A stretch of 6,798 bases of DNA from a virus (IMGVR_UViG_2690316243_000012), one strand, 5' to 3'; positions 13 through 6,798 are shown, counted from the first letter of the stretch. Notes: generated from the sequence alone by a model not told the origin. Made by a program: numbers and translations.

Positions 13-1290
13 TTAAGCGCAGCTATTTAGTGAATTAAGTAAATTAGTCAGTGACCTTGTAAAGTCTGTTAAACCTTCCTGTGAACCATCGAACATTAAG
101 GCCAGATTATTATTCCATGAATTACTTAAGCGGCCTAACTGCGTCTGAGTAGAGTTAATAATCTTTTCCCATCCACCAGCTTTATCAATCATCCTTCCCA
201 TTTCAGCGGATACTTTAGGAAGAACATCTTTAGAAAGAACCTTACCGTCTTTCATGGCCTTGTCTAATTCTTCCGTAGTCATCCCAAGACTTCTGGCAAA
301 TAACTGAAAAGCACCTGCCATTCTGTCACCTAATTGACCGCGTAGCTCTTCAGCCTGAATCTTTCCTTTAGATGCCATCTGCTCGAAAGCTTTTAAAATC
401 CCGTTAATTTCATCGGTGCTTAGCCCCATTAATCTGGATGTACCAATCACATTAGAAAATAAGGATTCTTTCTGGTCTGCATTCATATCACCAGCACCAG
501 CGGAAAACTTAGCAAAACTGCTTAATGTTTCAATCTGGTCTACACCACTACTATCAGCAAGATTCTTAACAAATTCTGTAGCTCGTTTAGCACCTTCATC
601 ACCTAAAACGAATTGTGCCGCTCGTTGTGATGCTTCTTTTTTCAGACCAACCTCCATAATCCGCCTGTAAGCTTCTAAGGCTGTCTGAAAACTATAAATG
701 GCTGTACCTGCTTTGATTGCACTCGTAGCTAATACATCCAGACTATTTGAAGCATTTTCACTGTGATTATTTTTGCTGGTGGTCTTGTTAAACTTAGAAA
801 GTGTTTCACGAAGAGACTGATTTAACTTTGCTAACTCACGATTAAAAGTTTCGTTTCCAAGTGTCTTGGATTTACTGCTTAAGCTGTAATACTGGCTTTT
901 AAAATACTTCTCAAGCATAGGATTAAAGTCACGAAGCTTGCTCATATTCGCTGAGTAAGCTGCTGTGATTGCTCTGCTTCCGCTAATTCGTGGCTGTCTT
1001 GGTTGTCTAAGTGGCTTTAAAGTATCCTCAATTTCAGTTTTAATCTTAAACGCTCTAGTGTTTTTAAGACGCTGCTCAATCTTGGAAACAGTTTTATCGA
1101 CATTTCTTTCCATTAGTTTGAGAGAATCATTTAAAGGCGTAGGATTAACTCTAAACGACTTATTCAATCGCTTCTCAATTCGTGATGCTACCTGCATCGT
1201 TTGTTTCTCGGCTTTTTCCAAGCCTTTTAAAACTTTCTGAGAGTTAAAACTTAACTCAATCAGAAAATCATCAACTTTAAATTGTGCCAT
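13..1290 (-). CDS. Phage tail tape-measure-domain protein (425 aa); atypically short, domain near C-terminus
   Basis: ORF-track ORF. ATG at 1290-1288 with SD AAAGAGGTG about 10 nt upstream (rc of 1299-1307); TAA stop at 15-13. Residues ~285-385 (SKGKIQAEELRGQLGDRMAGAFQLFARSLGMTTEELDKAMKDGKVLSKDVLPKV) match the duplicated GK..EEL / G.S/T.EEL.K...GK...D.LPK signature I recall from the conserved core of tape-measure proteins. The N-terminal ~280 aa are K/E/S/N/L-rich (coiled-coil-like). Product call is from memory, not a search. Confidence 0.6.
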   Translation of the reverse strand: MAQFKVDDFLIELSFNSQKVLKGLEKAEKQTMQVASRIEKRLNKSFRVNPTPLNDSLKLMERNVDKTVSKIEQRLKNTRAFKIKTEIEDTLKPLRQPRQPRISGSRAITAAYSANMSKLRDFNPMLEKYFKSQYYSLSSKSKTLGNETFNRELAKLNQSLRETLSKFNKTTSKNNHSENASNSLDVLATSAIKAGTAIYSFQTALEAYRRIMEVGLKKEASQRAAQFVLGDEGAKRATEFVKNLADSSGVDQIETLSSFAKFSAGAGDMNADQKESLFSNVIGTSRLMGLSTDEINGILKAFEQMASKGKIQAEELRGQLGDRMAGAFQLFARSLGMTTEELDKAMKDGKVLSKDVLPKVSAEMGRMIDKAGGWEKIINSTQTQLGRLSNSWNNNLALMFDGSQEGLTDFTRSLTNLLNSLNSCA

Positions 1291-1678: not shown

Positions 1679-2389
1679 TCAAACAGCCTTGCTATACTTC
1701 TGAGAAATCTTCGTTAACTGCTCAATATCAGCCATCAAAGCAATCTTCTTCTGCGACTCATATTCACTAACAAGTTCTTTCATAGTATCAAGTTCTTTTT
1801 TAAGCTTTTGCTTTAACTTATCCAGTTTACCGGAATAATGCTTAGTCAAATTAGCTTCAGCTAACTGAAGAATCTCTTCATCTGTTTTATCAGTCATCAG
1901 AATAAATTGACCAGAACCCCTTAATGCTTGTCTGACATCAATTAACCGGAACCCTTCAGGGATACTTTGAAGAACTTTAGGAACGTCTTCAATCGCTGTA
2001 CCAAAACCATCATTAAAGTTTCCTTCATAATAGATAAACGGGTTTGACTTAATCTCGTAAGCAATATCATATTCTGAAGGTTTCGAGGTTTCTTCGAAGT
2101 TCTTAGCAGCATCGTAAGCGACATCAAGTCTAAGACGCTGTGATTTTAAAGCTGGGTAATATTCACGCTCAAGCTCAAATAGTGCTTCAGTTTTGCAGAT
2201 ATCAGGCATTTCTTGAGGCTCAGGAGACACAAAGGAAATTACCTTTGGTGACATCTTTAGCTCTTGCTCAAGCTCAATGCGCTTGTCATGCTCTTGACGC
2301 TGAATAGTATGTAGCGGATGTTCACCCTGTGGTGACCAGTCTCCGAAGCTATCAACCTTTTTACCGTTAATATATAAATCGTTTGTCAT
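1679..2389 (-). CDS. Hypothetical protein (236 aa), function unknown
   Basis: ORF-track ORF. ATG at 2389-2387 with SD AGAGGA 7 nt upstream (rc of 2397-2402); TGA stop at 1681-1679. Acidic, coiled-coil-like C-terminus (KLDKLKQKLKKELDTMKELVSEYESQKK). I do not recognise the family. Confidence 0.65.
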   Translation of the reverse strand: MTNDLYINGKKVDSFGDWSPQGEHPLHTIQRQEHDKRIELEQELKMSPKVISFVSPEPQEMPDICKTEALFELEREYYPALKSQRLRLDVAYDAAKNFEETSKPSEYDIAYEIKSNPFIYYEGNFNDGFGTAIEDVPKVLQSIPEGFRLIDVRQALRGSGQFILMTDKTDEEILQLAEANLTKHYSGKLDKLKQKLKKELDTMKELVSEYESQKKIALMADIEQLTKISQKYSKAV

Positions 2390-2413
2390 TATAATTTCCT
2401 CTAAGTGTGGTTA

Positions 2414-2491
2414 TTTCTTAATAGAGCACCTTCAACGCCAATACACTTAGAAGATGACTTAACGATTTATTAAAGATGCTCTATTAAGAAA
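2414..2491. promoter_or_regulatory. Perfect 15-bp inverted repeat pair with 48-bp spacer, 25-102 nt upstream of the 236-aa gene start
   Basis: TTTCTTAATAGAGCA (2414-2428) and its exact reverse complement TGCTCTATTAAGAAA (2477-2491); read directly from the sequence. Could be operator half-sites or a long-range RNA stem in the 5' leader. Confidence 0.4.
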
Positions 2492-2580
2492 AGCCCTAAA
2501 CATAATCTGTGAAGGGCTTTGGAGGTTTGCTTATAACGTTAACGAAGTTTCAGGAAAACTTTCTTTAAAAGCTCTGTTTA

Positions 2581-2617
2581 AAAACTCTTAAAGAAAGCCC
2601 TAACTCATGATTAGGGC
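2581..2617 (-). terminator. Candidate intrinsic terminator ending the upstream minus-strand transcription unit
   Basis: 7-bp stem GCCCTAA (2597-2603) / TTAGGGC (2611-2617) with a 7-nt loop; on the minus strand it is followed by TTTCTTTAAGAGTTTTT (rc of 2581-2596). A second hairpin, AAGCCCT (2491-2497) / AGGGCTT (2513-2519) with a 15-nt loop, lies 80 bp further along the minus strand. Confidence 0.5.
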
Positions 2618-2904
2618 AAAGCTGTAAAGGATTCAATAATGAATGAACAAAGACTTTTTGAGATAGCCTCTCAGACCAACCTGAAAGGCTAGGACGAAAA
2701 GCATTGCACCTTTCCAACTCAGAATATCCATCCATCGGATTATTGAAAGAAAAAATAAGAGAGAATTGCTCTCCCCCATATATACAATTATGTCATGCTC
2801 AAGGTTGTTTGTCAACAGCTTTTAACAGATTGGTAACATTTATACTTTAATAGATGCACCTGCAATCATACCAATCAATACAAAACAGATAATCACCAAT
2901 TCCA

Positions 2905-3228
2905 TTAATGCACCACCTTCGAATCCGTCACCAGAATATTATCGCTATACAAAATTGCTATAGCCGCCTTGAGATATTTTTCAGGGCTAACGCTGTATTT
3001 GTTCGTTTCTTCGATAATAAGACGCTTCATGTTTGAGTCGGTAACAGGAAACATAAAACGCGGTTCACCAGTTTCAATTTCCTGAATAAAGTCTTCAATT
3101 TCTTCTGAGTTTTCAGCCATTAGCTTTAGTAATTTATCAAGGTCAATTGATACACCGGAATCAGCGAAAGCCTGCACCATCATAGCAGTGTCGCTATCAA
3201 TGAAAATCTGTAATTCATATTCGTTCAT
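2905..3228 (-). CDS. Hypothetical acidic protein (107 aa from the ATG start)
   Basis: ORF-track ORF 2905..3261 begins at a TTG. The in-frame ATG at 3228-3226 has a strong SD AAAGGAG 8 nt upstream (minus strand GGTAAAAAGGAGATTTTAAAAATG), so I place the start there. TAA stop at 2907-2905. No recognisable family. Confidence 0.55.
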   Translation of the reverse strand: MNEYELQIFIDSDTAMMVQAFADSGVSIDLDKLLKLMAENSEEIEDFIQEIETGEPRFMFPVTDSNMKRLIIEETNKYSVSPEKYLKAAIAILYSDNILVTDSKVVH

Positions 3229-3248
3229 TTTTAAAATCTCCTTTTTAC

Positions 3249-3370
3249 CAGACCTCCTCAATCGCTCTGTAACGAGCTAAACAGTCTTTTTCAGGGGTAG
3301 CCTGTACAGTGGTATTACCCACCCTAAAATAAGATAGTTTTTTGCGTTAGAATGCGATTGAGAGCGTCTG
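3249..3370 (+). repeat. Repeat element copy A: ~122-bp element with imperfect ~27-bp terminal inverted repeats
   Basis: Left arm CAGACCTCCTCAATCGCTCTGTAACGAG (3249-3276); right arm GCGTTAGAATGCGATTGAGAGCGTCTG (3344-3370), whose reverse complement CAGACGCTCTCAATCGCATTCTAACGC matches the left arm at about 19 of 25 positions. Homologous to copy B (4901-4998) and, inverted, to copy C (6286-6392). Lies between two minus-strand genes, its left end 21 nt from the ATG at 3228. Confidence 0.65.
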
Positions 3371-3406
3371 ATAAGCTGTTTTTCTAATTTCTCTTAAAGT
3401 CTCGGA

Positions 3407-3607
3407 CTACCAATAACCTAATTCCGCTTTATTTCGTTCAAACCATTCCGCTGTAACTGCTGTCTTTAGTGTTGCGTTTGGGCTGGTGGCATGAATGAAG
3501 ATATCTTTTGGATTGCAAGCATCACCGAAACCACCTTCTTTGATGAGCAGGTCTGATACATGCTTAATCATTTTATCTGTCAAATATTCGAATTTAATAC
3601 ATAACAT
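3407..3607 (-). CDS. Hypothetical small protein (66 aa from the ATG start; track ORF extends to a TTG at 3640)
   Basis: ORF-track ORF 3407..3640 begins at a TTG. The in-frame ATG at 3607-3605 overlaps the TAA stop of the upstream HNH-like gene (minus strand TAATG) and has SD GGAG 5 nt upstream, a classic translational-coupling junction. TAG stop at 3409-3407. No recognisable family. Confidence 0.45.
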   Translation of the reverse strand: MLCIKFEYLTDKMIKHVSDLLIKEGGFGDACNPKDIFIHATSPNATLKTAVTAEWFERNKAELGYW

Positions 3608-3879
3608 TAAATCTCCAGGAGTAAATTGTTTGGGTGGCAATTTCTTTTATTACCATCCCTGAAGATAATCTTTTTAGTTGCCTGAACTTCATGATGCAAA
3701 AACCAGATGACATACTTCAGATAATAATCACGAGTGCCATAACGAATCATTGGATTACCGTAAGCATCATCTCTTGTCTTAACCTCTCCACCATCAATCC
3801 ATTCAAGCATTCCTGTCTCATAATTAATCATGAAGTAAGTTGCAAAGAACCGTTTAATATCATCTCGCCATTGCTTCAT
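3607..3879 (-). CDS. HNH_3/NUMOD4-like small protein (90 aa), probably catalytically degenerate
   Basis: ORF-track ORF. ATG at 3879-3877 with SD AGGAGG 7 nt upstream. N-terminal LEWIDGGEV...YGNPMIRYG resembles the NUMOD4 motif; C-terminal YLKYVIWFLHHEV...IIFRDGNKRNCHPNNL resembles the HNH_3 motif (H.DGNK.NN...NL), but the position of the catalytic His reads F-R-D-G. Family assignment from memory. Confidence 0.5.
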   Translation of the reverse strand: MKQWRDDIKRFFATYFMINYETGMLEWIDGGEVKTRDDAYGNPMIRYGTRDYYLKYVIWFLHHEVQATKKIIFRDGNKRNCHPNNLLLEI

Positions 3880-3881
3880 AA

Positions 3882-4160
3882 TCAGACCTCCTGAGACAGT
3901 TTGTGAATTTTGATACTTAGTAACCTTGCTAAATCCAGTCCAAAAGCATTTAAGGATTTCAGACTATCAAGGTCATCTTGCTTAATCCTGATATGGTGTC
4001 TTGCAGCCTCTAAGCGACTATTAAGCAAATCCTGTTCGTTAATATCACGGTTAATTGCAAGCTTCATCACTGCTGAGTGTGGCAGACCTGTAATGTTTTT
4101 GATTCGGTTCAGTTCATCAAAGGCTGTCTTTGTAACTCTGGTTAATGTGTGTTTATTCAT
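3882..4160 (-). CDS. Hypothetical small protein (92 aa), possibly DNA-binding
   Basis: ORF-track ORF. ATG at 4160-4158 directly follows the TAA stop of the 185-aa gene (minus strand TAAATG) with SD GAGGA 8 nt upstream; TGA stop at 3884-3882, 2 nt before the next ATG. No recognisable family. Confidence 0.5.
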   Translation of the reverse strand: MNKHTLTRVTKTAFDELNRIKNITGLPHSAVMKLAINRDINEQDLLNSRLEAARHHIRIKQDDLDSLKSLNAFGLDLARLLSIKIHKLSQEV

Positions 4161-4718
4161 TTAAAAATCCTCTGTAACTAAATAGGGGTCAAACTCGAAA
4201 TCTGGTTGCTCGTTTTCCATTGGCTCAATATTCCCAACGGCAATATGATGTTCAACAATGCCAATTAATTTCGCGCACATCACAGCAAGCAAAGCGCAAT
4301 ATTTATCGCTTGGTAATTCGTAACTAAGTCTGGTTGCCTGTCGCTGAAGATGATTTGTCACGGTGGATGCGTTAATTTCGTCAAGATTCTTTAGCAGATA
4401 AAATAGTTTTTTGTTGTATTTCGGGTGGCCTTCACTTCTACAGAACCCAATAAAAACATCATCAAGCTTGCTTGGTAACTGCTCGTAACTGTCAAAGTTA
4501 GCCAGATAATTTTTAATAGTATTCTTTGTTGTTTTGCGTACTGGCATAAATCTGTCTCGTGGCGTAATGCTACGAATGACCGCTTCAATGTTCTTACGTT
4601 CGGATTTGCTAAAGGTTGGGACTTCGTAGCTGGTGGGGTTGTTTGTGTAAGCGTAGGAGTTGTGCTTGTTGCGTTCTCTTGATGCCTGAAGCATCGCTCT
4701 AAATTCTGAATACTGCAT
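4161..4718 (-). CDS. Hypothetical protein (185 aa); first gene of the minus-strand operon
   Basis: ORF-track ORF. ATG at 4718-4716, TAA stop at 4163-4161. About 45 nt downstream of the predicted minus-strand promoter; the SD is weak (GAGAG ~11 nt upstream). No recognisable family. Confidence 0.6.
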   Translation of the reverse strand: MQYSEFRAMLQASRERNKHNSYAYTNNPTSYEVPTFSKSERKNIEAVIRSITPRDRFMPVRKTTKNTIKNYLANFDSYEQLPSKLDDVFIGFCRSEGHPKYNKKLFYLLKNLDEINASTVTNHLQRQATRLSYELPSDKYCALLAVMCAKLIGIVEHHIAVGNIEPMENEQPDFEFDPYLVTEDF

Positions 4719-4769
4719 TCATGTTCTGACTCTCATAAGATGTTATTATTCTGTTAACCTATATATACA

Positions 4770-4798
4770 ATATTAGCATTTTCAAAGACTAATGTCAA
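4770..4798 (-). promoter_or_regulatory. Candidate sigma70 promoter for the minus-strand operon
   Basis: On the minus strand: -35 TTGACA (rc of 4793-4798), 17-bp spacer, -10 TAATAT (rc of 4770-4775). Read directly; the -35 matches consensus perfectly. Confidence 0.5.
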
Positions 4799-4804
4799 GT
4801 ATTT

Positions 4805-4834
4805 TTAACATTTTCGTAACATCTGTGGTATAAT
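4805..4834 (+). promoter_or_regulatory. Candidate sigma70 promoter with extended -10, driving the plus-strand small-protein transcript
   Basis: -35 TTAACA (4805-4810), 18-bp spacer, extended -10 TGgTATAAT (4826-4834). Its -35 is 6 bp from the -35 of the divergent minus-strand promoter. Confidence 0.55.
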
Positions 4835-4900
4835 GGGTTTATGGGGAGAGTAAAATATGAGGCGTGGCTATGTATTTGGTCGCATATTTTGCATTGCACA

Positions 4901-4998
4901 CAGACCTCTTCAATCGCCCTGTAACGAGTTAAACGACCTCTTCAGGTCAACTCATAAGGTCAGGTACTTTTTGTGTCAGAATGCGATTGAGAGCGTCT
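4901..4998 (+). repeat. Repeat element copy B: ~98-bp homologue of copy A, in the leader of the small membrane-protein gene
   Basis: Left arm CAGACCTCTTCAATCGCCCTGTAACGAG (4901-4928) matches A's left arm at 26 of 28 positions; right arm GTCAGAATGCGATTGAGAGCGTCT (4975-4998) carries the same AGAATGCGATTGAGAGCGTCT core as A. The interior shares the first ~20 bp with A (TAAAC..CT.TTCAGG), then is ~20 bp shorter. Ends 15 nt before the ATG at 5013. Confidence 0.65.
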
Positions 4999-5012
4999 TA
5001 CAAGGAAAACTA

Positions 5013-5189
5013 ATGGTAAATCTCCCTCCTGAGCTGGGGTCACCTGATGTATGGACTGGTGGAGGTATTGGGCTGATTGCAGGCCTGCTACTTCGCTACG
5101 TCCTCGTCAGAGTGCTTGTTGTCTTTAAACTGTTCGGTCGTACATGGACGCTTGACCTTAAGGATAACGACCACACAGACCCCCGTTAA
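5013..5189 (+). CDS. Small single-pass membrane protein (58 aa); candidate toxin, holin-like or exclusion peptide
   Basis: ATG at 5013 with SD AAGGA 7 nt upstream; TAA stop at 5187-5189. Translation MVNLPPELGSPDVWTGGGIGLIAGLLLRYVLVRVLVVFKLFGRTWTLDLKDNDHTDPR has one hydrophobic helix (about residues 15-41). The track ORF 4857..5189 is the same frame extended to an ATG at 4857, which has its own SD GGAGAG; that N-terminal extension is encoded entirely by repeat copy B, so I prefer the short form. Confidence 0.5.
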   Translation: MVNLPPELGSPDVWTGGGIGLIAGLLLRYVLVRVLVVFKLFGRTWTLDLKDNDHTDPR

Positions 5190-5200
5190 ACTCCTTCAAA

Positions 5201-5260
5201 ACCCCTGCACGAGATGACAGATAGAAGTCTATGGTACAGGGGTGTCTTTAGCATTTTGTG
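5201..5260 (+). terminator. Candidate terminator-like hairpin after the small membrane-protein gene
   Basis: Perfect 7-bp stem ACCCCTG (5201-5207) / CAGGGGT (5237-5243) with a 29-nt loop that has its own short inverted repeat (ATAG..CTAT), followed by the T-rich GTCTTTAGCATTTTGTG. The large loop makes this a weak call. Confidence 0.3.
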
Positions 5261-5324
5261 CTATCTATTAAAAAATAGCTTGACAGAACCGGAAAGCTGT
5301 ATCTATCAAGCATTCACCTCTCTG

Positions 5325-5501
5325 ACAGTAATTTCTAAAAGTTCTTATTTTTCAATAAGTTGTAATTAGCCATATATAGAGAACTGACAAGTCTCTTCAC
5401 AGACAACTCTGCAACCTTAACAGTAACTTCTAAAAATGCTTATTTTTCAACGAGTTGTAATCACCCAATATATAAGGCTGTCCAGTACCTTCACAGATAA
5501 C
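5325..5501. repeat. Tandem direct repeat, two ~83-bp units at a ~95-bp period
   Basis: Unit 1 (5325-5407) and unit 2 (5420-5501) share ordered blocks ACAGTAA, TTCTAAAA, TTATTTTTCAA, AGTTGTAAT, ATATATA, CTTCACAGA, AAC, with divergent sequence between them (by eye roughly 70% identical). A partial third copy (ACAGTAACTT plus AT-rich tail) is at 6457-6490. Confidence 0.7.
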
Positions 5502-6285
5502 TTCAAGCCCTCTTAACCGCCCCACTAATCGGGAGAAGAGCGATAACCCCAGAGAGGGAAGCTCCTTTCTTAACCGACCTCTTAAACGACCTTTACAGAC
5601 CTTGTTCAAGGTAATCACAATAGTTTTTCTTCCCTCGGTTTCCTGTGTTCCTCGGCTGGCTATTGAGATTTGAAAGACCTCTGTAAGCGCTCTCTTAGCG
5701 AGAGAAAAATCATTCATAGTGACCCCAAGCGAAGCGCCCCTCTAAAAAAAGATTTTTTAGCTATTTTGTTTAAAAGCATATCAAACGATACATTTTATTG
5801 ATTTAGGTCAAAGACAAAAGCATTGACAAAATGGTAAGATTGTTCACATGACCTTACTTAACAGACTTTTAAGAGACTTTGAAACAGCCTGTTTAACAGG
5901 TCACTACCTCTGGTCTTATCGTTCCCTTCTTTCTAGGTGGTTATCTGTTAAGAGTTTTTCAGTTTTTATTCTTAAGATAATTGTTAAGATGATACTCTCC
6001 CTTCGGGTTATATCGTATCTCTTCTCCCGTTAAATATCCCTTCACAGTCAGACTAAATAACACCTGTGTAGTTCTTGGTAGAATCTTTCAAGGTAACTTA
6101 GCTCTGAGTTTATGAAGTTGACCTATGAGATAGACTCTACCGAATCTGTTAGTCAATTGTTGCTTAGGTGCTGCTAAGGCTTACTTAGTGGAAAGAGAGG
6201 GGATATGTGACCATAGGGGAACCCCTCCTGTTAAAAGACTACTTAGAAGTCTGAGGTTTTAGTAAAATCTGTGAATATGGCTTCT

Positions 6286-6392
6286 CAGACGCTCTGTAAC
6301 GCATTCTAAGCGATTTTACCCCTTTATTTTAAGGTGGTTAGTACATCCCTATAGGTTACCCCTAAAAATGGGGTTAAAACTCGCTACAGAGC
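6286..6392 (-). repeat. Repeat element copy C: inverted, diverged copy of element A/B lacking the outer left arm
   Basis: Plus-strand CAGACGCTCTGTAACGCATTCTAAGCG (6286-6312) matches the reverse complement of A's right arm (CAGACGCTCT....GCATTCTAA identical apart from CAATC to GTAAC). The reverse complement of 6313-6392 aligns with A's interior and inner left arm (AGGGGTAACCTATAGGG vs AGGGGTAGCCTGTACAG; CCACCTTAAAATAAA vs CCACCCTAAAATAAG; GCTCTGTAGCGAG vs GCTCTGTAACGAG). Confidence 0.55.
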
Positions 6393-6643
6393 TTTCTATG
6401 AGATTAGCTTCTAATCGAATCAACTATGAGGTTTGGTAGGATTGTGCAAAATCTGTACAGTAACTTTTCAGAATCTGAAAATTTTTATAAAAAATGACTA
6501 GCCCTCTTTGAATCTCATCTTCCCCGAATCTTCAAAAATATCTGACAGATGTCTGTAGCTGCTAAGTACCCGTCACACCAGCTATGTGACCCCCTTGGCA
6601 AAAAAGCCAAATATCAGCTACATCCATGTAACTATTCAGTAAC

Positions 6644-6798
6644 TTATTTAGCAAGTCTGTAATAAGTTGCTCTAGAGATTCCTAACTCTTCCTGAATCTG
6701 CAACCTCGTCTTACCTTGTGAAATAAGCGTCTGTACAGCCTCTGAAGAAGCTTTTACAGGCCTCCCCATATGTACCCCTTCAGCTTTAGCACGTTCAA
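6644..6798 (-). CDS. Small serine recombinase (resolvase/invertase family), C-terminal HTH domain only; 5' part lies beyond the window
   Basis: Not in the ORF track (only 50 codons inside the window). Minus-strand translation of 6796-6647 is ERAKAEGVHMGRPVKASSEAVQTLISQGKTRLQIQEELGISRATYYRLAK, then TAA at 6646-6644. The GRP motif followed by a helix-turn-helix ending ..G.SR.T.YR.. is the characteristic C-terminus of Hin/Gin/Tn3-resolvase-type serine recombinases (from memory). Confidence 0.7.
   Translation of the reverse strand, partial: ERAKAEGVHMGRPVKASSEAVQTLISQGKTRLQIQEELGISRATYYRLAK

Follow-up and report, generated by a model that had tools for sequence, protein, structure and literature searches.

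The 6,798-nt stretch of viral DNA IMGVR_UViG_2690316243_000012, referred to here as the window, carries on its plus strand a small open reading frame (ORF), ORF58 (5013-5189), that encodes a predicted single-pass membrane protein of 58 amino acids. The window is part of a chromosomal island of approximately 11 kb that is present in 544 of 5426 complete Escherichia coli genomes. We present evidence that ORF58 is a genuine gene, and we regard it as probable that its product is an accessory single-pass inner-membrane peptide of this satellite-like island and that positions 4805-5259 form a self-contained transcription unit, comprising a promoter, a leader, a Shine-Dalgarno sequence, ORF58, and a terminator-like hairpin, in which a palindromic repeat, element B, is a facultative part of the leader.

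The ORF58 gene, its product, and its promoter

Relatives of ORF58 were drawn from IMG/VR, RefSeq E. coli genomes, metagenomes, and one species-representative genome (Escherichia albertii). Among 14 distinct coding sequences, the ratio of nonsynonymous to synonymous polymorphism (pN/pS) is 0.22, the variable columns number 18, 6, and 32 at codon positions 1, 2, and 3, respectively, and the sole difference in length is an in-frame block of 12 nt; the products of the relatives range from 58 to 62 amino acids. The start, MVNLPPEL, is conserved across the relatives, and an AGGA or AAGG motif is present upstream of the ATG in every form of the leader. In the window this motif, read from the sequence, is the Shine-Dalgarno AAGGAA (5002-5007, plus strand), 5 nt 5' of the ATG at 5013. 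The pattern of coding substitution goes beyond chance, and ORF58 is a genuine gene. The initial annotation, which had called a small hydrophobic ORF of 58 codons with a single transmembrane segment from 5013, is thus borne out by the substitution pattern, by the conserved start and Shine-Dalgarno sequence, and by the one predicted helix. The GC content of the coding sequence is 0.48-0.49, as against 0.32-0.44 in its flanks, and ORF58 is unannotated in most of the RefSeq genomes inspected. At one related locus (L117, 6020-6035) a run of nine C residues in the start region puts the ATG out of frame, and a tenth C would restore it; this tract reflects either a sequencing error or a slippage-prone sequence.

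The hydropathy of the ORF58 product reaches a Kyte-Doolittle peak of 2.29 (19-residue mean) at residues 19-37, two arginines notwithstanding, and AlphaFold2 models a single helix over residues 11-54, with a pLDDT of about 90 over residues 21-40. Conserved motifs of the protein are G16xxxG20xxxG24, RY..VR, and FGRxWxxDLKD. No variation is seen at glycines G17, G18, G20, and G24 and almost none at G16, and the resulting GxxxGxxxG glycine zipper suggests self-association. The N-terminus is acidic, and R28, R33, K39, and R43 lie on the C-terminal side of the helix; by the positive-inside rule the protein probably adopts an N-out, C-in topology with its basic juxtamembrane segment inside. A word-indexed search returned 48 proteins, and all of those with a source name are from E. 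coli. When 1.84 billion protein representatives were scanned in full with an HMMER profile, 17 matches were obtained, essentially all of them close relatives. Neither ORF58 nor the 185-aa protein encoded beside it found a match among phages by tblastn, and phage and plasmid collections searched by megablast with the window likewise gave none. By these searches ORF58 is an orphan family, apparently restricted to the 11-kb Escherichia island.

The expression of ORF58 is predicted to depend on a σ70-type promoter at 4805-4834 of the plus strand, consisting of a -35 element TTAACA (4805-4810), a spacer of 18 nt, and an extended -10 element TGgTATAAT (4826-4834, with the TG at 4826-4827). In a consensus scan this promoter matches 11 of 12 consensus positions, in addition to the TG, and is the joint top site in positions 2300-6798. 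Promoter-like matches as a class are not clearly enriched in such a scan (17 seen versus 11.6 ± 3.5 in shuffled sequences), and it is conservation that identifies this promoter as real: its -35, TG, and -10 are invariant in five related loci, and L116 and L117, both of them more divergent islands, also retain it. The extended -10 and near-consensus -35 described at the outset therefore stand. A second promoter of the form TTGACA-17-TAATAT, detected in the same way on the minus strand (4770-4798), lies back to back with that of ORF58 and would drive the leftward operon that runs from the 185-aa ORF to the tape-measure protein (TMP) gene. Since this second promoter is directed leftward from 4798, the region around position 4800 is a divergent control region.

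Both of these promoters are associated with related direct-repeat dyads. A candidate operator, TTAACAT-N4-GTAACAT (4805-4822, plus strand), overlaps the -35 and spacer of the ORF58 promoter; a second dyad, TTAACA-N5-ATAACAT (4740-4757, minus strand), lies just 3' of the leftward -10; and a third, TTAACA-N5-RTAACAT (2822-2839, plus strand), lies beside the -35 of a promoter at 2815. The pattern TTAACA-N5-RTAACAT, which was defined post hoc with the data already seen, occurs three times in the window, each time at a promoter, and not once in 200 shuffles. Additionally, the window contains eight copies of TTAACAG where 1.6 are expected, and the TTAACA boxes are retained in divergent islands. A box-binding protein of the island or of a phage would control the ORF58 promoter, in which the -35 and spacer constitute two TTAACAT boxes. 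Downstream of ORF58, positions 5317-5506 hold two tandem repeats of 95 nt, in both of which promoter-like hexamers are accompanied by the motif CCA(T)ATATATAG, likewise found 3' of the -10 in both leftward promoters; locus L010 has just one unit of this repeat.

The stop codon of ORF58 is followed by a terminator-like hairpin (5201-5243; -20.8 kcal/mol) which, with its T-rich tail, extends over 5201-5259 of the plus strand. In relatives this hairpin has a 9-bp stem, a 6-nt loop, and a UAUCUUUAG tail, and in the window its loop holds an insertion of 17 nt. Directly after the hairpin lies a strongly conserved non-coding stretch (5262-5312) with TAGCTTGACAGAACCGGAAAGCTGTATCTATCAAGC, which is an imperfect inverted repeat. 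The stretch persists in L116 and L117, both divergent islands, and resembles neither a promoter nor a terminator.

The ORF58 leader and its palindromic repeats

Transcription from the ORF58 promoter is inferred to start approximately 7 nt past the -10, giving a predicted 5' leader of about 172 nt (4841-5012, plus strand). The leader of approximately 170 nt that had been proposed, with B directly 5' of the Shine-Dalgarno sequence, is borne out in the window, where B occupies 4901-5006. Its composition varies among islands. In 61 loci the distance from the -10 to the ATG falls into discrete length classes that reflect the presence or absence of B and of a second palindrome, element C: six loci have a naked leader (82-86 nt), nine have C only (126-132 nt), 31 have B only (178-183 nt), nine have B with a shortened C (195-213 nt, occurring as 195 and 211-213 nt), and six have B together with C (231-235 nt). 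The promoter, the Shine-Dalgarno sequence, and ORF58 are intact in all of these states. The copy of B in the leader, B2, is present in 46 of the 61 loci, or about three quarters of islands, and is missing from the other 15, so that B is not the integral part of the leader that it first appeared to be.

The suggestion that B sequesters the Shine-Dalgarno sequence is likewise not supported by folding. In partition-function folding of 14 natural leaders the Shine-Dalgarno sequence is mostly unpaired (probability 0.43-0.89), as is the AUG (0.53-0.84), and codons 2-7 are the sole partly paired portion of the start region. Given this predicted accessibility, B neither occludes the ribosome-binding site nor is needed for the unit. 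At its 5' end the transcript carries a purine tract, GGGGAGAG (4843-4850, plus strand), and for most leader types the minimum-energy fold includes a predicted long-range helix between this tract and codons 4-6 (5022-5030). The alleles of this tract, GGGGAGAG, GAGAGAGGG, and GGGAGAGGG, each complement the sequence of codons 4-6, UCUCCCUCC, and third positions vary less often within codons 2-14, at 5 of 13, as against 28 of 37 within codons 15-51 (p = 0.02). The evidence that this helix is functional is suggestive only, because the fold of the leader as a whole is unremarkable (z = -1.7). Two further candidates in the leader were rejected. A hairpin at 4864-4883, flagged as terminator-like in a scan, is not conserved and corresponds to the place at which C is inserted, and a 16-nt identity between leader sequence GAGAGTAAAATATGAG and a phage ribosome-binding site was taken as chance, the upstream context in the phage being unrelated.

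Element B is an imperfect palindrome with terminal inverted arms of about 26 nt that form its lower stem. B2 (4901-5006, plus strand) ends inside the Shine-Dalgarno AAGGAA, 6 nt 5' of the ATG, and is predicted to fold as a hairpin of -33.2 kcal/mol (z = -2.9). The element recurs in the window with arms that are approximately 90% identical. B1 (3249-3375, plus strand) separates the 77-aa ORF of the leftward operon from the 108-aa ORF and abuts the minus-strand Shine-Dalgarno sequence of the latter, and B3 (6280-6392, minus strand) is an inverted, degenerate copy with a B1-like interior. The boundaries of the B site are clean. Empty sites read CACACAG|GAAATTTAATG, and filled sites contain, between CACACAG and GAAATTTAATG, an inserted block of 103 nt, ACCTCTTC...GCGTCTTACAAG; the repeat flanking the block is imperfect (ACAG...ACAAG). 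The word CTCTGTAA occurs at 3265, 4170, 5679, and 6292, always on the plus strand (four copies where 0.36 are expected), with CCCTGTAA in B2 in addition; B elements do not contain two of the copies.

Comparison of 110 loci placed elements of the B type at just two orthologous sites, with constant orientation and flanks. B3 is an extra copy in the window, absent from the equivalent place in L010-L013 and from most islands. In E. coli, B2 is found in 220 genomes, the median being one place per genome, and never on plasmids, and no copy of B was found in 35 kb of chromosome flanking the islands L025 and L026. Thus, B is private to the island, and its identity as a genome-wide miniature inverted-repeat transposable element (MITE) is ruled out by copy number. 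No cognate transposase for B was recognised, and a 236-aa protein labelled 'transposase' in some RefSeq records has no support in Pfam, NCBIfam, or PDB. A search of the whole window against all Rfam families (E ≤ 1) gave no match, so that B does not belong to any known RNA family, C4/CI-type immunity RNAs and ribozymes included. We also considered an invertible segment in which B1 or B2, with B3, would serve as sites for the small serine recombinase of the island; this was rejected on the grounds that all 110 loci are collinear, that the flanks and orientation of B1 and B2 are constant, and that B3 is mostly missing. Finally, B1 and B2 are transcribed in opposite senses. An antitermination element like put of HK022 or nut of lambda was set aside for this reason, and the symmetric stem alone is therefore common to the two RNAs.

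The right edge of B1 is a junction of alternative gene modules. Where B1 is missing, a different structured element fills the same intercistronic place. Comparison of L012, L025, L027, and L031 with the window showed that the module of B1, the 77-aa ORF, and an HNH gene (3239-3875) is swapped in some islands for a 128-aa ORF, which is preceded by another structured element with short B motifs (CTCTGTAAC, AGAATG). The region thus appears as a mosaic of modules exchanged at hairpin boundaries.

Element C is a distinct palindrome of 51 nt, the insertion point of which lies, in C-only leaders, about 35 nt 5' of the B site. The empty C site is GGCTATGTATTTGG, and the filled site has CTATG on both sides. 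Members of the C family (CTATGAGGTTTATTCGATAGGGGTTGGTACAAGCCCAACTAACCGAATCAACTATG and shortened forms) occur at at least six sites in the islands, each copy bracketed by CTATG; examples are 6396-6428 in the window, 5895-5950 in L010, and several sites in L011, L013, L028, L034, L055, and L107. The CTATG...CTATG brackets are exact at several of these sites, as if they were a 5-bp target duplication or the trace of site-specific insertion. Neither B nor C is present in the complete Felixounavirus genome of Escherichia phage EC106. Rather than a dedicated riboregulator of ORF58, B is an island-specific facultative palindromic repeat, and we read B and C together as small repeats of the MITE, enterobacterial repetitive intergenic consensus (ERIC), or Correia type. 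At most, B would add a stable double-stranded RNA hairpin to the transcript, and both elements, when co-transcribed, may affect RNA processing or stability.

The island and its kinship with Felixounavirus phages

The island was observed in the wrbA-ymdF interval and in the tonB-yciI interval, and a more divergent island with identical gene order adjoins other genes. It encodes, in order, a large serine recombinase, a Dit-like protein, a tape-measure protein, and several proteins of no assigned function with or without HNH endonucleases, followed by the divergent promoters and ORF58. ORF58 is followed by 1.4-2 kb that is non-coding or carries a gene for Dam or for an AP2-HNH protein, and then by the gene for a small serine recombinase. 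This last region is variable, as a comparison of window positions 5200-6798 with L026, L027, L031, L032, and L033 showed. In some islands it encodes a Dam methyltransferase with a C-terminal resolvase-type helix-turn-helix or an AP2-HNH endonuclease, and the small recombinase gene occurs in either orientation.

The tail proteins of the island are related to those of Felixounavirus phages, with identities of 32-44% for TMP and 66% for Dit. The tape-measure ORF of the window (13-1290, minus strand) encodes 425 amino acids, compared with 691 in L026 and L117, and may be truncated. The kinship extends to non-coding DNA. Two blocks of 48-52 nt in the window, at 5893-5942 and 6453-6500, are 84-90% identical to a 1.7-kb non-coding region found in 142 Felixounavirus genomes, a region that consists of an array of TTAACA boxes spaced about 11 nt apart. 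The order of the two blocks is swapped relative to the phage, and in islands of the L013 type the second shared block is about 150 nt. These shared blocks could represent mimicry of a pac site, an origin (ori), or an operator of the phage.

No capsid, terminase, or lysis genes were found in the island, and TMP and Dit are its sole tail genes. An integrative island of about 11 kb that has its own large serine recombinase, and from which most structural genes are absent, has the general form of a phage satellite, and by its sequence the island resembles a satellite of Felix-O1-like phages of the kind represented by PLE of Vibrio cholerae. Literature searches for the island, for the accessions of ORF58 proteins, and for a Felixounavirus satellite returned no relevant paper. 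A bolder conjecture, which we hold tentatively and with considerable doubt, is that the island is an undescribed satellite of virulent Felix-O1-like coliphages, an analogue of PLE residing in about 10% of E. coli genomes. In this conjecture the TTAACA-box promoters, including that of ORF58, would sense a box-binding protein or be derepressed by titration of that protein on the box array of the helper; ORF58 would be a membrane effector that alters the timing of helper lysis or the entry of helper DNA; and B and C would be private, tiny palindromic elements that are mobile or serve in RNA processing.

Alternative explanations and comparison with known systems

Several observations weigh against the account given at the outset, an accessory membrane peptide of a satellite-like island with a facultative repeat in its leader. 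ORF58 has no match in Pfam, PHROGs, NCBIfam, PADLOC, or PDB sequences. The terminator of the unit is weak, and in the divergent islands L116 and L117 the hairpin is different and has no T-run. The dyad pattern at the promoters was defined after the fact. No gene for excision, replication, or packaging was recognised in the island, the satellite status of which is a matter of similarity only. The remaining points concern B, which lies directly 5' of a Shine-Dalgarno sequence at both of its sites and in the stem of which G-U-compatible variants (8 types, 33 cells) outnumber A-C variants (5 types, 8 cells), one position passing through a U-A > U-G > C-G series. B could therefore have a selected RNA role beyond what folding reveals.

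This last possibility can be stated as an alternative in its own right, namely that B is a functional cis-acting RNA, either a site of processing by RNase III or another enzyme or a 5' stabiliser, that tunes the expression of ORF58 and of the 108-aa ORF. The hairpin is stable and conserved, its variation is wobble-compatible with one compensatory series, and its base lies 4-10 nt 5' of the Shine-Dalgarno sequence at both sites. Moreover, another structured element takes the place of B1 where B1 is missing, and the restriction of what the two RNAs share to a symmetric stem fits an enzyme specific for double-stranded RNA. Against this, B2 is dispensable in 15 of the 61 loci, and the sequences are too alike for a strong test. 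Support for a selected RNA structure is weak, since the excess of G-U is equally seen on the strand of B1 that is not mRNA, where mutation bias can explain it, and since the RNAalifold covariation term is just -0.15 kcal/mol. We consider this explanation unlikely.

A type I toxin-antitoxin locus, one of the comparisons made in the initial annotation, is less likely still. Here ORF58 would be a depolarising toxin, the mRNA of which is kept inert by leader structure and an antisense small RNA. Like the type I toxins Hok, TisB, Ldr, and Zor, ORF58 is a small peptide with a single hydrophobic helix, here bearing a glycine zipper, and it is expressed from a long 5' untranslated leader in which the 5' purine tract may pair over a long range with codons 4-6; the constraint on third positions in codons 2-14 and the setting in a chromosomal mobile element are also in keeping with such a locus. 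Unlike those toxins, ORF58 shows no signal of an antisense RNA, in that a consensus scan of minus-strand positions 4840-5300 gave no promoter-like site (weak, non-σ70, or trans-encoded cases being beyond the reach of such a scan). Furthermore, the mostly unpaired Shine-Dalgarno sequence and AUG do not make for an inert transcript, the whole-leader fold is ordinary, and no toxin family is matched in Pfam, NCBIfam, PADLOC, or PDB. Tandem paralogues are typical of many type I loci, whereas ORF58 is present in a single copy per island, and leaders that have neither B nor C persist in nature, their promoter strong and their Shine-Dalgarno sequence open.

That ORF58 is the holin or antiholin of a lysis cassette is very improbable. 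Its product has the outward form of a holin, being a small membrane protein with one helix, a glycine zipper, and a C-terminus that is charged, and it is encoded in a phage-related element, but there is no endolysin or spanin among the island genes, no conserved dual start, and no match to a holin in PHROGs or Pfam, and ORF58 is transcribed alone, divergently from the island operon. Both the toxin and the holin readings are thus weakened by missing companions, which are an antisense RNA or a sequestered Shine-Dalgarno sequence for the former and a lysis cassette or dual start for the latter. Scarcely credible, finally, is a 110-aa product or a regulatory upstream ORF spanning B, initiated at an in-frame ATG at 4857: this ATG is present in the window, is preceded by GGAGAG, and opens a frame that continues through B, gene callers extend ORF58 N-terminally in several relatives, and in naked leaders the TGA of a short upstream ORF directly precedes the ORF58 ATG, but many relatives have ATA in place of the ATG at 4857, an in-frame stop lies upstream of ORF58 (at positions -3 to -180) in 43 of 44 distinct leaders, and the extensions share neither sequence nor length. 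The upstream start is thus real in the window as a sequence, and the 110-aa product, the extension not being conserved, is an accident of the lineage of the window.

The account that we prefer remains that of an accessory inner-membrane peptide of a satellite-like island. In this account the peptide would oligomerise through its glycine zipper and act at the inner membrane in conflict between phage and island, either by exclusion or by disturbing the timing of lysis in the manner of LidI, a product of PLE. Among the functions originally listed for ORF58, the Felixounavirus-related context of the island makes interference with phage or with lysis timing the more plausible. As another unannotated small membrane protein of a mobile element, one whose leader contains a repeat, ORF58 is useful for annotation and not surprising in itself; its weight comes from the island, which is found in about one in ten E. 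coli genomes and in which virulent Felixounavirus phages are represented by tail genes and by non-coding signals. Phages of this genus are used in phage therapy and typing. If it is true that the island interferes with or hitchhikes on these phages, the constitutively promoted ORF58 is a prime candidate for an effector. In addition, the four natural leader alleles amount to a ready-made experiment on the effect of co-transcribed palindromic repeats on expression.

The repeats in the leader have counterparts in the Correia elements of Neisseria, the ERIC (or IRU) sequences of enterobacteria, and MITEs, all of which are co-transcribed palindromic repeats. Like these, B and C are 50-125 nt long with inverted termini, are polymorphic for presence and absence at orthologous sites, and lie inside transcripts beside genes as long imperfect hairpins, and C is flanked by CTATG direct repeats that resemble a target duplication. 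Unlike these, they are confined to one island family at a tiny copy number (two or three sites for B and about six to eight for C), and neither the flanking chromosome nor the examined Felixounavirus genome has a copy; no transposase was identified as cognate, and the flanks of B are imperfect. B may also be compared with the intercistronic RNase III sites of phage T7, which are a set of related irregular hairpins between genes. The copies of B are likewise related irregular hairpins between genes, just 5' of the next ribosome-binding site, but they occur in both orientations relative to transcription, and their cleavage is putative.

The unit as a whole is reminiscent of the 'morons' of prophages and of small membrane proteins of superinfection exclusion such as HK97 gp15 and T4 Imm. 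ORF58 resembles a moron in having its own promoter and a terminator-like hairpin (weak, and not conserved in L116 and L117), in a GC content that differs from its surroundings, in its insertion into a phage-derived element, and in the small membrane protein that it encodes. It differs from morons and exclusion proteins in having no homology to any of them and in residing in an 11-kb island rather than a complete prophage.

The closest functional analogue of ORF58 may be LidI. The integrase of PLE, like that of the island, is a large serine recombinase. LidI is a transmembrane protein of 66 amino acids in PLE1 and PLE2, previously unannotated and with no recognisable homologues, that was shown experimentally to collapse lysis inhibition (eLife 2020, PMC7182436). 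ORF58 is likewise a short transmembrane ORF overlooked by annotation, and each gene resides in a small chromosomal island with kinship to a virulent myovirus. The likeness is one of size, transmembrane character, and setting, and whereas the effect of LidI is experimental, the role of ORF58 is inferred and the satellite status of its island is drawn from sequence similarity. ORF58 also differs from LidI in having its own σ70 promoter, and it may therefore be expressed without infection.

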